From the NCBI GenBank assembly GCA_046350735.1, contig JAXLZU010000001.1, forward strand, positions 684,462 to 748,461: a stretch of 64,000 nt of DNA. The letters run 5' to 3'. The DNA comes from Candidatus Saccharimonadota bacterium. Its GTDB lineage: Bacteria; Patescibacteriota; Saccharimonadia; CAILAD01; BJGX01. The position numbers and the translations under genes are program-made. Positions 3,956-9,594 of this stretch are shown here, in pieces (position 1 is the stretch's first letter; the number at the start of each line of letters is the position of its first letter). Below the pieces are notes generated by a model. The model saw nothing but the letters and a program-made list of their open reading frames with translations, was not told the origin of the DNA and did no database searches.

Positions 3956-4210
3956 TTATATATTTACAAAGACATAGGTGTTAGTATCGGTAACTTCTAC
4001 GATACCTCTTTGCACTGCAAACTTTTGCTGGCCATTTGCGGTCTCAACGTTTAACTCGCAGGGCGTTAAGAGACATAAAAAATTTGCGTGGTCAGCTAAA
4101 ATATCAAACGGGCCACTTTTGTTTACCCCTGATAGAAGTGTTGCCGGGCCTTCATAATAGGTCTGAAACGGCGAGAAAACGGTAAGAGAAAATGTTTTTT
4201 TTAGCTTCAT
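3956..4210 (-). CDS. atpC: F1-ATPase epsilon-like subunit, N-terminal beta-sandwich domain only (84 aa, no C-terminal helical hairpin).
   Basis: It is the last gene of an atpFHAGDC-ordered operon and overlaps beta by 4 nt. Pattern [12 protein letters not shown]...[17 protein letters not shown] matches the epsilon beta-sandwich (P..i.eg.v..v.vp...GemGiLp.Ha). Confidence 0.55.
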
Positions 4211-5532
4211 TGTTTGGGTTCGCTAGCAAGAATTTTTTCTACACCTTTCAGGGTCTCATTTCTGGTAAAATATTGCCCTTTTACCCCGGTATTACGCTCG
4301 GTAACAAACATTGACTGTCTAAAGAATTCCATTAAGTCACGGGCTTGGTAGTACGCGCGTCTATCTGCTGCCGAAAGTTCGGTTTCGCCAATAATTGCCA
4401 CAATACCTTTGAGTGATTGATATTTTTGCAATACTGACTGTACCTGCCTCACCAAGTTTACATGTCTTTCGCCAACAATATCAGCAGTAAGGAGTGCTGA
4501 GCTTGTATTGAGTAAGTCTACTGCAGGAAACCGACCCTCTTCCATAATAGCCCTACTTAGCACTACTACCGAATCTAGCTGAGAGAATACCTCAGTTACT
4601 GCTGGATCAGTTAAATCATCAGCCGGAATAAAAAGAGATTGTACCGAAGTAATTGCACCCTTACTAGATGAGCTTAAGTTTTCTTGGAACGTTCCGACCT
4701 CGGTAAATAATGTTGGCTGATAACCCCCTTCAGACGACACTTCTCCCATTAATGTAGAAAGCTCATTGCCTGCCTGTAAGAAGCGATAGATATTATCCAC
4801 AAAGAAAAGCACGTCTTTTTTATACGTATCACGCATGTACCGAGCGCTGGCAGCAGCACTTCTACCTACCAGAAAACGTAATGCGGCGTTCTCATTCATC
4901 TGAGCCAAATACATCACTGTAGAAGAAAGTAGTTTTGCATTATCGAGAGTATCGTAGAGCTCACGAGCTTCTCGCATACGCTCTCCAATACCAACAAAAT
5001 ACGATATTCCCTGGCTCGACTTGGCCACGTTATGCATAAGCTCGGTTGTTAATACTGTTTTACCAACACCTGCACCACCCACAATACCAATTTTGCGACC
5101 ATGTACAAACGGCGCAAAGAAATCAATTGCCTTAATACCGGTTTCTATAAGGCTGGATTTTTGTGAAGCAGAAATCTCGGTTGAATCTTCATTACTAGCT
5201 GGAATATAACTCACATCTTTGAGAGGGTCACTACTATCAAGTGTCTCACCAAGCGCATTAAAAACTCTGCCAAGTACCGACTTACCTACAGGTAGCTGCA
5301 ATGTATCGCCTACTCCGGTTAGAACTTCTCCGGCGCAGAGTACAACTTCTGAAAGATTAATAGCTACCAGAATATCATCTGGTAGTAACGAAACTATCAT
5401 AAATCTAACATCTGGCTTGCCTTGCAAACTCAGTAACTGCCCGACACTTGGCTGTGCACCTTCGTAAGTAGCATCAACCACAACTCCATGGACAGATTTG
5501 ATAGTAGCGGTAATCTTATTCATCGTTTCCAA
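4207..5532 (-). CDS. atpD: F1-ATPase beta-like catalytic subunit (copy 1).
   Basis: Walker [69 protein letters not shown] and a DELSEED-like [10 protein letters not shown]. These match the canonical beta signature closely. Confidence 0.85.
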
Positions 5533-6356
5533 ACTCCTTGGGTAGGTTGATAATTTCTATCTAGCTCATCGCGCTCATGGCGACGAGCCTGCGAGGCACG
5601 TCGGAGTAAATCGGCATCAATACGACGCGCCTCAGATGATGCCATATTCATCGCTGTAAATCGGCTCGCAAATTGCGCCAAGCTTGCCTCGAGAATTACT
5701 TCGGTAAGTACTGTCTCGAGTATCATCGACTCGAGATAGGCTACAAACTCTTCTGCCGATGGCTCGAAGATATATTCATCGGGAGAGATTAATCCCTCAG
5801 GTCGCTCATCTCGTTCGGCTTGGGTCATGTCGCGTACTGCCTCTATGAGCGCAAAGTGTACAATCTGCTGGTCGCCAAGAGAGACAAAATTTGGGTAGTA
5901 AACAATCGGAGCTTCGTACTGTTGTAAGACTGACACAATTTGGTCAACTTGTAACGACTTGGTGATATCTGGTAAAGGAAAACTGTACGTGGGAGTAATG
6001 TTGCGCTCTAATAACAGGTGTTCGCCGTGTGCGCCAATAACAATTAAGTCGGTAGTTTTGGGGTCGAAGCTATAGAGCGCTTGTTGTAATAATAATGCAT
6101 CTACTGACCCAACTAGATTAACATTAGCACTCACCAACACACGCACTTGGCGTTTGTTTTCGATAACATTTGGATTATTTTCTATACGTAATCCGGTATA
6201 GATAAGCCACAGGCGATTAAAGAACTGACGCGACCCAAGAACTTGTTCTTTAATTTGACGAATACGAATAGAAGCGACGTTTTCGAAAATATGGGTAGTG
6301 TTCTCAATGGCTACAATGTCACGGTGATCATTTAAAAGTTGGGTTGATTGCTTCAT
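5520..6356 (-). CDS. atpG: F1-ATPase gamma-like central stalk subunit (copy 1).
   Basis: 278 aa, sitting between alpha and beta as in atp operons. Coiled-coil N- and C-termini are typical of gamma. Overlaps the neighbouring genes. Confidence 0.65.
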
Positions 6357-6359
6357 TGG

Positions 6360-7775: not shown

Positions 7776-8211
7776 GTTGCAACCTTTCTACTAACTTTTC
7801 AGAATTTGCAAACAAGTTAGATCGCAATGACAAATCGTACACCTGCCCACTGGTGCGTAGCACACAGCCAGCCAGTAAATCGCTGTTTTGTGCAATATGT
7901 ATCATAGTGTGGGGATGAATATGTGAACGAAACCAACCAGTGAGTTCGTTTAACTCCTCGCCATTTGGCATACTGGCTACCACGAGTGAAATTTGCGGAC
8001 TCGATGATAATAATGCTTTTAGATAAGATACCAATTTGGCTTGCGTGGCAATTGTTAGACTACCAATCGCATTTGTCTGAGCAAATTCTTGCAAATGAGT
8101 GGGCCATTTTTGAGGCAAGACCAAAACAGCCGGCTTAAGTTTTTCTACCTCACTGAGTAATGCTTCTATTTGCTGAGAGCTAGAGAACGAATTGGGTAGT
8201 CTATACGCCAT
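7768..8211 (-). CDS. atpH: F-ATPase delta/OSCP-like subunit (147 aa).
   Basis: Position between b and alpha. C-terminal LLAGCVLRTSGQVYDLSLRSNL resembles the delta C-terminus (IIGGvvvrvGd.viDgSvrg.L). Overlaps alpha by 8 nt. Confidence 0.45.
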   Translation of the reverse strand: MAYRLPNSFSSSQQIEALLSEVEKLKPAVLVLPQKWPTHLQEFAQTNAIGSLTIATQAKLVSYLKALLSSSPQISLVVASMPNGEELNELTGWFRSHIHPHTMIHIAQNSDLLAGCVLRTSGQVYDLSLRSNLFANSEKLVERLQHA

Positions 8212-8768
8212 TATTTTACGCTTGCCTCAATATCTTTTTTGAGTGCATCTTTGTGTGCCTCGAGAGAAGAAAATAAATAGTCTTTTTGCTGTTGATAATC
8301 TATATTACCCGCAATATCAGCCATATAACCAATCATTATCTCGGCGATTTGGGAATCGACTTTCTTTATGGCATCAGCCTTGGCTTGTGCTGTTAATGCG
8401 TTAAGCTCGTTATGCGCTAGCTTGGTAGCAGCATCATTTTCTTTGGCAGTTGCCTGCAAATCGGCAACTGTTTGCTTTAGCAAAGACTGTGTAGCTACAC
8501 TAAACTCAGACAGCTGTTTTTGAGTAACCTGCTCTAATGATGTTATAAATGCCTTACTAATTTTATCGGCATTATTTTGTAATGACTTTTCTAGGCTAGC
8601 CGACTGGTTAGCTACAATAACATCAAACTCCCGTTTGGCTTTCGCAGAAGTAAGCTCGACACTATCTTTTTGCGAAGGCTTTTCTTTTTTATCCACCAAG
8701 ATAAGCAGACCAAATATTAGAGCTACAATTGCCAGAAATACACCAATTACTAAAATTATAAGATCCAT
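8211..8768 (-). CDS. atpF: F-ATPase subunit b-like peripheral stalk (N-terminal TM followed by a long charged coiled coil).
   Basis: MDLIILVIGVFLAIVALIFGLLILV is a TM helix, followed by a roughly 150-aa charged helical region. It lies immediately upstream of delta. Confidence 0.5.
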   Translation of the reverse strand: MDLIILVIGVFLAIVALIFGLLILVDKKEKPSQKDSVELTSAKAKREFDVIVANQSASLEKSLQNNADKISKAFITSLEQVTQKQLSEFSVATQSLLKQTVADLQATAKENDAATKLAHNELNALTAQAKADAIKKVDSQIAEIMIGYMADIAGNIDYQQQKDYLFSSLEAHKDALKKDIEASVK

Positions 8769-8769
8769 T

Positions 8770-9594
8770 TTACCCTCGAATTATTATTTTAATGATAACA
8801 AACGCCACTATAAAAATCACCGCAATCATTCCTACCACTTGTAACAAACTTAAGAAAATAGCGTTCTTTGCGGTTGGGTTACGGCCTATAGAGCGAATAC
8901 TGCTTGAGGCGCTAGAGTAGAGAATAACCAGCGAAACCACCACGGCAATTAAGATAATAATGGTTACCAAAATTGTTCTCTCGGTAGATACAGTTTTGCC
9001 ACTAGCACCATTCAGTATTTGCTGTAGTGGCAATAATACAGCCGGCACAGATGGTGAGCTAGACTGGTAATCACTAACGTTCACCACTACGGGTAGTAAA
9101 CGAATATTTGCAGTTGTAGTATTACCATCTTTAGCAGTTAGGACGCGAGTTTGAGTAGTCTGGTCTTTGCCTGCAGTAGCAAAACTTTGTGCTGCCGTAC
9201 CCAATACACGGGTTGACTGTGTAGCCTTCATTACAACCCCAGCAATTGGCGAAGCAGTAAGCTGATCGCCTACTTGTATCTCGCCATTAATATCGGTTGC
9301 AGCAACTTTGGCTTGTCCGTCTGTAATAATTGGGGGGCGTGCCGTGCCGCTAACATTTATCACCACATCGCTCGACCCTACTGCAACACCATACAGATAT
9401 TGCTCATTACCGGCCACAGCGAGACTAATTGTATTGTCTTTTAGTACCACCGCAGCACCAGCCACCACGTCTGGTTGTATTTGATACGACTGAGTAGATA
9501 GGCCTTCTGCCAAAACGGCAGCCGGAGTAAATAAGATTGCCAACGCAAAAAATACGGCAACGATGCGTGTATAACTATGGTTAATCCAACTCAT
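8770..9594 (-). CDS. Signal peptide, then a roughly 165-aa extracellular domain, fused to a C-terminal c-subunit-like helical hairpin (TM1-GRNP loop-TM2) that lacks the ion-binding carboxylate (Gln in its place). It occupies the atpE/atpB position of the operon.
   Basis: N-terminal MSWINHSYTRIVAVFFALAILFTPAAVLA-EG is a signal peptide. The C-terminal ...SIRSIGRNPTAKNAIFLSLLQVVGMIAVIFIV aligns with c-subunit ...[29 protein letters not shown]: the RQP/RNP loop and the MIAV segment are shared, and Q sits where D61/E sits. There is no D/E in either TM. A paralog lies at 30446..31291. Confidence 0.5.
   Translation of the reverse strand: MSWINHSYTRIVAVFFALAILFTPAAVLAEGLSTQSYQIQPDVVAGAAVVLKDNTISLAVAGNEQYLYGVAVGSSDVVINVSGTARPPIITDGQAKVAATDINGEIQVGDQLTASPIAGVVMKATQSTRVLGTAAQSFATAGKDQTTQTRVLTAKDGNTTTANIRLLPVVVNVSDYQSSSPSVPAVLLPLQQILNGASGKTVSTERTILVTIIILIAVVVSLVILYSSASSSIRSIGRNPTAKNAIFLSLLQVVGMIAVIFIVAFVIIKIIIRG

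Follow-up and report, generated by a model that had tools for sequence, protein, structure and literature searches.

An F1-like ATPase operon headed by a subunit c-like hairpin protein in a Candidatus Saccharimonadota genome: a possible motor for surface fibres

What could an F1-type ATPase do if its operon offered no path for ions across the membrane? The question is raised by a stretch of 64,000 nucleotides (nt) from a Candidatus Saccharimonadota bacterium (GenBank assembly GCA_046350735.1, contig JAXLZU010000001.1, positions 684,462 to 748,461 of the forward strand), hereafter called the window. A first-pass annotation, made from the letters of this DNA alone, had described there an F1-ATPase-like operon with the order c-like fusion, b, delta, alpha, gamma, beta and epsilon, but without subunit a. 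It was found that all seven open reading frames (ORFs) do lie in this order on the minus strand, and that the cluster stands, as had been proposed, among surface-fibre genes in a genome of the Saccharibacteria, which belong to the Candidate Phyla Radiation (CPR). A second, paralogous cluster, which the earlier reading had missed, was found 17 kb away. The explanation we favour, to which we give about an even chance, is an ATP-driven F1-type mechanical motor acting across the membrane on surface fibres.

Inspection of the minus strand from 9594 to 3956 showed a tightly packed seven-gene operon (cluster 1), in which adjacent ORFs overlap or sit 1-4 nt apart. When the operon was scanned for promoter and terminator consensus sequences, the number of matches was that expected by chance. 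The products, with lengths in amino acids (aa), are the following.

8770..9594 (-): gene 1, hairpin protein, 274 aa
8211..8768 (-): b-like protein of the peripheral stalk, 185 aa; its gene lies between those for the c-like and delta-like proteins
7768..8211 (-): delta/OSCP-like protein, 147 aa, N-terminal part shortened (Pfam OSCP, E=0.0036)
6360..7775 (-): alpha, 471 aa (Pfam ATP-synt_ab, E=8.5e-60)
5520..6356 (-): gamma, 278 aa (Pfam ATP-synt, E=1.4e-21)
4207..5532 (-): beta, 441 aa, catalytic motifs intact (NCBIfam atpD, 410 bits)
3956..4210 (-): short epsilon, 84 aa (Pfam ATP-synt_DE_N, E=6.9e-12 over residues 7-83)

Alpha, beta, gamma and epsilon were identified by both Pfam and NCBIfam (E 1e-12 to 1e-125). 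All their scores fall under the curated NCBIfam cut-offs for the canonical atpA/atpD, N-ATPase and Mycoplasma types: atpD reached 410 vs 462.85, atpA 323.7 vs 484.45 and PRK13343 372 vs 554; the N-ATPase models TIGR03305/TIGR03324 gave 418 vs 752 and 317 vs 750.5; and the Mycoplasma models MSC_0618/0619 and MMOB1660/1670 gave 385 vs 570, 214 vs 520, 286 vs 600 and 340 vs 850. The claim of intact catalytic motifs in alpha and beta was borne out by these family matches, by alignment of beta to chains in the Protein Data Bank (PDB) and by reading of the sequences. Alpha carries a Walker A motif GDSKSGKT and an SVSRIGG arginine finger. Beta aligns end to end with solved F1 betas, best with 6q45_D (348 bits; the beta of the Mycoplasma mobile G1-ATPase gave 285 bits), and keeps GGAGVGKT, GERxRE and DNIYRF in the alignment to 6q45_D; its DELSEED loop is degenerate and reads TELSAAD. 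Epsilon consists of the beta-sandwich alone, without C-terminal helices.

That the head is of F1 type and is joined to a central and a putative peripheral stalk was upheld by the Pfam and NCBIfam matches together with a profile of the delta-like protein. This profile, made from 28 orthologues of the 147-aa protein, matched delta/OSCP chains in the PDB with E=6e-7 to 1e-4, over the C-terminal domain plus a portion of the N-terminal one. The 185-aa protein, whose orthologues are conserved in related loci with the same seven genes, was modelled by AlphaFold2 (AF2) with a transmembrane (TM) helix at residues 2-27, an unbroken 118-residue helix at 37-154 and a terminal helix at 158-184, and as modelled it has the architecture of subunit b. 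A profile of its family gave only generic apolipoprotein-type coiled-coil matches. Because of the delta profile match and the b-like architecture, cluster 1 can plausibly be credited with a peripheral stalk, a part missing from the Mycoplasma systems discussed below.

The gene at the head of the operon takes the place of atpE and is translationally packed against the gene that follows. Its product, identical to NCBI U0516_03830, comprises a signal peptide (residues ~1-29), a beta-domain (~35-176), a helix (185-198) and a helical hairpin (204-238 and 240-273). In the AF2 model (pLDDT 81) the signal peptide is a helix, and it is followed by a beta-rich domain, a short helix and the helical hairpin. 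In an alignment of 37 homologues the mean column identity was 45%, and the loop S-x-G-R-N-P between the two helices was invariant (S-I-G-R-N-P in the cluster 1 protein). The signal peptide and the basic loop predict an extracellular beta-domain and a cytoplasmic loop, so that the topology of the hairpin matches that of subunit c. By analogy, the loop S-I-G-R-N-P would sit where gamma and epsilon dock on a c-ring. The GxGxGxG packing motif is absent from the hairpin. The predicted fold of the ectodomain resembles phage capsid-decoration, head-fibre-base and auto-chaperone proteins. Phage capsid-decoration and head-fibre-base proteins are normally trimeric.

The position of the ion-binding carboxylate of subunit c, 18 residues after the loop proline, was non-acidic in 89 of 89 copies of the hairpin protein and was occupied by hydrophobic or small residues (A, V, L, I, G, other). 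The first-pass annotation had stated that the hairpin has no acidic residue; this held for both copies in the window, with zero Asp or Glu in either helix, but not for some orthologues, in which a Glu occurs at position +12, away from the carboxylate position.

Subunits a and c were then sought in the 64-kb window and in ~90 related loci with their flanks. Neither phmmer with the E. coli a subunit nor a scan for a-subunit motifs found a subunit a in the window, translated in six frames, or among the ORFs of the related loci, and upstream of cluster 1 there is no ORF with the 5-6 TM helices of an a subunit. A c-subunit hidden Markov model (HMM), run on the same sequences, matched only the hairpin protein, and that weakly. 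The reported lack of subunit a in the operon thus extends to the window and to the flanks of the related loci; a normal subunit a and a carboxylate-bearing c just upstream, which the first-pass annotation had named as a finding that would overturn its proposal, were looked for and not found. Homologue searches with beta returned, among the matches listed (at least 120), only F1-like orthologues and no canonical atpD of the same genome. In the explanation favoured here, a complex with neither an a subunit nor a mid-membrane carboxylate could not couple ATP hydrolysis to H+ or Na+ flow.

The second cluster lies at 31291-26585 on the minus strand. It has the hairpin, alpha, gamma, beta and epsilon genes, and is without b and delta.

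30446..31291 (-): hairpin protein, 281 aa, with signal peptide, beta-domain and c-like hairpin; 36% identity to the cluster 1 copy (E=2e-31)
29029..30456 (-): alpha, 475 aa; 46% identity to cluster 1 alpha
28181..29032 (-): gamma, 283 aa; orthologues matched by phmmer in class B loci (defined below)
26853..28184 (-): beta, 443 aa; 54% identity to cluster 1 beta, Walker A and B present
26585..26848 (-): epsilon, 87 aa; similar to cluster 1 epsilon, matched by phmmer in class B loci
31363..31983 (-): upstream protein, 206 aa; N-terminal region helical and charged, two TM helices at the C-terminus
31983..34334 (-): upstream PKD-domain surface protein, 783 aa (Pfam PKD_4, E=3e-14), with a C-terminal LPQTG + TM sorting signal
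24055..26466 (-): downstream N-anchored fibre, 803 aa (Pfam Peptidase_S74, E=1e-15; PHROGs tail fibre)

The hairpin gene overlaps the start of alpha by 11 nt. The 206-aa protein, for which a Pfam scan gave no match, is also encoded directly 5' of the hairpin gene in loci L053, L029, L025, L034 and L021, and may stand in for the b/delta stalk that cluster 2 lacks. A Glu lies within the last of its predicted TM helices (GIAAELIL), and EKKREAD is repeated in its cytoplasmic part. The PKD/LPxTG protein upstream is conserved in class B loci, and so is the 803-aa S74 fibre downstream of the cluster. Just beyond the PKD/LPxTG gene, at 34416-36920 (-), a VirD4/TraG-like coupling ATPase of 834 aa is encoded, with TraG-D_C and TrwB matches.

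The arrangement is widespread. The hairpin family has 293 relatives in GTDB species representatives, and the best 80 of the 293 all belong to Saccharimonadia; in a library clustered at 50% identity, 10,282 representatives match the family at E<=1e-3 and 663 at E<=1e-30. From 86 loci, the following synteny classes were drawn.

class A, ~45 loci: hairpin, b, delta, alpha, gamma, beta, epsilon
class B, 6 loci: hairpin, alpha, gamma, beta, epsilon
class C, ~25 loci: stand-alone hairpin gene

The cluster therefore does co-occur in related genomes, with the full seven-gene order in ~45 of the 86 loci, and this order is kept across species whose hairpin proteins share only 30-40% identity. Every ATPase cluster examined is headed by the hairpin gene, both in ~55 loci found with the hairpin protein and in all four loci found with beta (E<=1e-72). 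Several variations were observed. An extra hairpin-family copy stands straight after epsilon in L070 (10105-10935), and two tandem hairpin-family genes occur without the ATPase in L077 (3830-5527). The gap between gamma and beta holds unrelated genes or ~0.9-1.4 kb of extra sequence in some relatives (L036, L075, L088); in L088 (8792-9981) these are NUDIX and NTPase genes.

The surroundings of the hairpin genes are also recurrent. In ~45% of the class A clusters a giant N-anchored ORF begins ~115 nt after epsilon. A giant ORF follows epsilon directly in five of the six class B clusters, and in the sixth it lies ~530 nt downstream, past a small ORF on the opposite strand. The class C genes are nearly always followed, ~115 nt on, by an ORF of 570 to >3,280 aa. 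Stand-alone hairpin genes directly 5' of ORFs of 1,960 to >3,280 aa were seen in L026, L028, L030-L032, L041, L047, L048, L052, L055, L060, L063, L072 and L080; many of these loci also have parA, parB and a signal peptidase gene immediately upstream, beside another ORF of 1,500-1,900 aa. In the window itself the description of cluster 1 as flanked by fibre genes on both sides proved correct (9700-12206 upstream, 3847-2 downstream).

9700..12206 (-): N-anchored fibre on the upstream side, containing a stretch like collagen and ending in an S74 chaperone domain (Pfam Collagen; Pfam Peptidase_S74, E=7e-18; PHROGs tail-fibre matches)
2..3847 (-): downstream giant fibre of >1282 aa that continues beyond the window; cytoplasmic tail at the N-terminus, single TM anchor, repetitive fibre
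3888..3916 (-): sigma-70-like promoter of the downstream fibre gene (TTGTGC, 17 nt, TAGAAT)

The downstream fibre has an orthologue in L001 that carries Peptidase_S74, and its N-terminal layout is common to the giants downstream of other clusters, which across loci have a cytoplasmic tail of 50-150 aa, one TM anchor and a conserved neck motif. The upstream fibre is encoded in two pieces, 10695-12206 and 9700-10701, which lie in different frames and overlap by 7 nt; the near-identical locus L001 has one gene of 835 aa, and the split may reflect a frameshift, an error of sequencing or a pseudogene. The sigma-70-like promoter is conserved upstream of giant genes in all three locus classes, and the 803-aa fibre of cluster 2 has its own (TTGCCA at 26555-26550, TATAAT at 26531-26526). 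The common motif upstream of giant fibre genes (window 3888-3916 and 26526-26555; loci L005-L080) can be written as cTTG..., ~17 nt, CATAAGCnnTGTAnnAT. It is followed by a leader of 60-70 nt with a short hairpin, which reads AGGGAG...CTCTCT in many loci.

How might such a complex work? In the motor that we propose, alpha3beta3, gamma and epsilon, to which cluster 1 would add a b/delta peripheral stalk, would form a membrane-attached, ATP-hydrolysing machine whose partner in the membrane would be an oligomer of the hairpin protein, its signal peptide cleaved off, in place of an ion-translocating Fo. The foot of the rotor, gamma/epsilon, would bind the cytoplasmic loops of this oligomer, and torque or a twisting stroke would pass from gamma/epsilon to the hairpin oligomer and on to its outside domains. 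From there, force would reach the N-anchored, probably trimeric, giant fibres encoded downstream. The output might be attachment to, or movement on, host cells, by the principle that has been proposed for the Mycoplasma type 2/3 X0 machines. The motor is favoured because the F1 and stalk set is complete, with intact catalytic residues, and the hairpin stands at the atpE position; because the hairpin heads every cluster, its +18 residue is non-acidic in 89 copies and no a or c was found; and because fibre neighbours recur, a Mycoplasma precedent exists and Seymour et al. 2023 linked related ATPases to symbiosis. Gene content and synteny, motifs and predicted folds, topology, operon packing and conservation are what the sequences show; from them we infer the binding of the hairpin to the F1 foot, its stoichiometry (trimer or larger ring), rotation and fibre coupling. 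More tentatively, and with clearly less confidence than in the motor as such, we suggest that a small rotor, a trimer or a ring in multiples of three, serves as a transmembrane shaft that spins or twists a phage-like base with its trimeric giant fibre, and that this may be the sole F-type ATPase in lineages like CAILAD01, possibly also here.

Several observations weigh against such a motor. Its rotor element is compared with subunit c, and the first-pass claim of a c-like fusion stood for layout, loop and topology but gained only moderate support for homology. When the hairpin profile was compared with nine reference c-subunit sequences, the alignment was gapless and in register at the R-N/Q-P loop, with a local hhalign score of 20.7, against 8.6 +/- 1.8 (max 13.4) for 60 column-shuffled controls and 10.0 for the reversed profile; the absolute hhalign probability was 12.7%. 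The HMMER profile of the whole hairpin family, run against PDB sequences, matched no c subunit and gave only a chance autotransporter match. Against Pfam the family gave weak phage-cement matches, and one member reached ATP-synt_C at E=0.05; NCBIfam, PHROGs and single-sequence Pfam scans of the hairpin protein gave no matches. Because the score beats its controls, yet the probability is 12.7% and HMMER is silent, homology of the hairpin to subunit c is likely, judged from these sequence comparisons, but unproven. The trimeric relatives of the ectodomain fit a c-ring of at least 8 copies poorly; they speak for three copies, or a multiple of three, over a classical ring. The synteny adds further difficulties. 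About half of the class A clusters have no adjoining giant gene, and class B is without b and delta. The hairpin family occurs in ~25 loci without an adjacent ATPase, and because these paralogues stand alone, the conserved loop may serve something other than F1 docking. The fibre genes, moreover, are neighbours and not members of the operon, since they have a promoter and transcription start of their own.

The alternative that survives best, although we consider it rather unlikely, is that the hairpin protein is a fibre-anchoring or base protein that is merely co-located with the ATPase genes, while the F1-like complex is tethered by the b-like helix alone and acts on another partner or as a soluble ATPase. 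Such an account would explain the stand-alone paralogues that adjoin giant genes without an ATPase, and in a neighbour-joining tree these copies indeed group with ATPase-linked copies that have giants. The likeness of the ectodomain to phage head-fibre bases and the weak similarity of the hairpin to c would also be expected from it. Mere co-location is, however, hard to reconcile with the hairpin gene opening every examined ATPase cluster, including the four of four that were found via beta alone, and with its retention in clusters that have no nearby giant gene. The class B hairpin gene overlaps the alpha start codon, in cluster 1 the gene sits exactly in the atpE slot ahead of b and delta, and the loop motif and hairpin length mimic subunit c.

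Slightly less probable in our view is an export or assembly ATPase for the giant fibres, in the style of FliH-FliI-FliJ, with the hairpin oligomer as membrane dock or gate. FliH, FliI and FliJ of the flagellar and type III secretion systems are related to b/delta, alpha/beta and gamma. Relatives of rotary ATPases do serve export, and the alpha and beta of cluster 1 also match FliI/SctN models in NCBIfam (E ~1e-50). The ATPase cluster and the stand-alone hairpin genes stand directly 5' of genes for very large secreted or anchored proteins, and the ectodomain resembles fibre-base and auto-chaperone folds of phages. The head is nevertheless of the true alpha/beta heterohexamer type with gamma and epsilon, for which the F1 models give ~400 bits vs ~190 bits for FliI. 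Signal-anchor helices of an ordinary kind stand at the N-termini of the fibres and would suit insertion by Sec/YidC, no fibre gene lies near about half of the clusters, and we know of no two-helix hairpin that acts as a protein channel.

It is very unlikely that the complex still translocates ions, with a residue at +12 of the hairpin as an unconventional site and with a canonical operon elsewhere in the genome providing an a subunit in trans. Helix 2 has Gln or Glu at this position in most copies, with a conserved Gln in both window copies and Glu in some orthologues. The position lies ~one helical turn inside the cytoplasmic face, not in mid-membrane, and 6 residues from the canonical site; and the bulky ectodomain on each hairpin would clash with an a subunit against the ring. 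BlastKOALA counts for five complete Saccharimonadales genomes give one atpB, atpE and atpF each, and for three of these genomes two copies each of atpA, atpD and atpG (PMC12592800 Table S5), so that a single set of Fo genes can stand beside two sets of head genes. The table lists two alpha/beta/gamma sets for Mycosynbacter amalyticus, a cultivable Saccharibacterium. In the order CAILAD01, by contrast, atpB, atpE and atpF are absent in 15 of 15 genomes (PMC12592800 Table S5), while alpha, beta, gamma and epsilon are present in five or six of the 15, two of these being 97-99% complete (PMC12592800). The CAILAD01 type genome supplies loci L012 and L024, a class A and class B pair like that of the window. 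Least credible of all is a decaying, functionless remnant of an ATP synthase operon, which would account for the loss of subunit a and of the c carboxylate and for subunit scores below curated cut-offs, but not for intact frames and catalytic motifs in two paralogous copies, a conserved seven-gene order and 293 relatives in GTDB species representatives; a pseudogene or relic was rejected on this deep conservation.

A prophage origin of the whole locus was also rejected, as its neighbours are the housekeeping genes gyrA, gyrB, 16S rRNA and pheT and it is chromosomal in all relatives. Some further features of the window were noted. The pheT product (927 aa, 39006-41789, minus strand) has an NlpC/P60 peptidase domain inserted at residues 446-546, between its B3_4 and B5 domains. 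The 16S rRNA gene (16131-17676, minus strand) has no 23S or 5S gene nearby. A tRNA-Ile(GAT)/tRNA-Ala(TGC) pair, normally found in the rRNA spacer, lies at 13670-13841 on the plus strand, 2.3 kb from the 16S gene and on the opposite strand to it, with protein-coding ORFs between; the rRNA arrangement is thus unlinked. A further ~650 bp (12980-13660) are without a long ORF. This stretch had no Rfam match even at E<=0.1 and its folding was ordinary (z = -1.5); a basic ORF of 114 aa within it (13092-13436, plus strand) may be real.

If its more tentative form holds, the proposed motor would be a minimal surface appendage, rotary or torsional, powered by ATP. With five to seven genes that keep the ancestral order, it would be the simplest known rotary ATPase re-used for force across a membrane, and its rotor element would be still recognisably c-like yet bear an outside domain. 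It would offer a testable hypothesis for the X0 sector, still poorly understood, of the ATPases that serve gliding and MIB-MIP in Mycoplasma, and would point to how ultra-small epibiotic CPR bacteria handle giant adhesin-like fibres. Public records label the betas of these clusters "F0F1 ATP synthase subunit beta", and surveys of pathway completeness therefore count the clusters as ATP synthase. In many CPR genomes such "ATP synthase" calls would, in the more tentative form of the proposal, denote a mechanical motor and not an energy-conserving enzyme, and KEGG-style calls of "F-type ATPase present" in Saccharimonadia would mix two different machines.

Among known systems, the first-pass annotation had pointed to Mycoplasma as a precedent. 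This comparison was confirmed for the F1-like X0 ATPases of types 2 and 3, and extends even to the layout of the c-like fusion, which has a counterpart in one Mycoplasma protein. The clusters of type 2 (gliding) and type 3 (MIB-MIP) encode alpha-, beta-, gamma- and epsilon-like subunits, a 12-TM protein, a small cytoplasmic protein and Protein 5, and are without b and delta; Protein 5, encoded just upstream of alpha, combines a signal peptide with a large ectodomain and a C-terminal pair of uncharged TM helices, and the type 3 ATPase is required for a surface system (PMC3369863, PMC12994834). Like the clusters described here, type 3 (MSC_0618-0624 / MMCAP2_0575-0581) is an extra alpha/beta/gamma/epsilon set without a or c in a genome-reduced, host-dependent monoderm, where it stands beside a genuine F1Fo and works with the surface proteins MIB-MIP. 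The differences are also clear. Type 3 has the 12-TM protein and the small, GliD-like cytoplasmic protein, in place of which cluster 1 has b-like and delta-like genes; no 12-TM gene was found in either window cluster or in the related loci. The type 3 order is 12TM, small protein, gamma, epsilon, SP-2TM (signal peptide and two TM helices), alpha and beta, whereas here it is the canonical c-b-delta-alpha-gamma-beta-epsilon. The ectodomain here is ~170 aa with a phage-decoration fold, compared with 85-127 kDa in type 3. An NCBIfam scan (E<=1) gave no match of the hairpin proteins to Mycoplasma-type SP-2TM sequences, whereas their layout agrees with that of Protein 5 as described.

The type 2 G1-ATPase of M. 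mobile (MMOB1610-1670) likewise combines an F1-like head with giant surface proteins, which here are encoded adjacent. In the model for that machine, gamma docks on MMOB1610/MMOB1650 and rotation goes to the giant surface proteins Gli521 and Gli349 (PMC11864180, PMC8406192). Its twin motors are joined in chains via GliD and an N-terminal extension of beta, neither of which is present here. To our knowledge, there is no evidence for gliding in Saccharibacteria.

A relative by phylogeny may be the "symbiotic" F-type ATPase of Omnitrophota, whose betas cluster with those of Ca. Saccharimonadia and whose alphas fall with Mycoplasma types 2/3; Seymour et al. 2023 linked this clade to symbiosis (PMC10066038). 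The repurposing independent of Mycoplasma that the first-pass annotation had put forward is no more than a possibility. Here too a non-respiratory F-type paralogue is found in ultra-small, host-dependent bacteria rich in giant ORFs. That study covers the alpha/beta phylogeny and co-location with type IVa pili only, and not the membrane sector (PMC10066038). Neither the gene tables of L001 and L004-L006 nor those ORFs up to 10 kb from the two clusters that were scanned with Pfam showed type IVa pilus genes.

With the canonical F1Fo (atpBEFHAGDC), cluster 1 shares the gene order from c onward, homologous alpha, beta, gamma, epsilon and, at profile level, delta subunits, the predicted architecture of b and, in the hairpin, a c-like length, topology and R-N/Q-P loop. 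It differs in having no a, no carboxylate, an extracellular domain of 170 aa, an epsilon without regulatory helices and a degenerate DELSEED loop. The N-ATPase has its own a, c, atpQ and atpR genes, whereas no a or c was found here. FliH-FliI-FliJ resembles the present system as a rotary-ATPase relative with b/delta-like and gamma-like partners that was re-used for a surface appendage; FliI, however, is a homohexamer as opposed to an alpha3beta3 head, and the window has no export-gate genes. Reviews treat the enzyme of Patescibacteria simply as an F-type ATP synthase, and in the literature no description of the Saccharibacteria fusion protein or membrane sector was found. Extra "non-respiratory" F-type copies in Saccharimonadia and Omnitrophota were already known.

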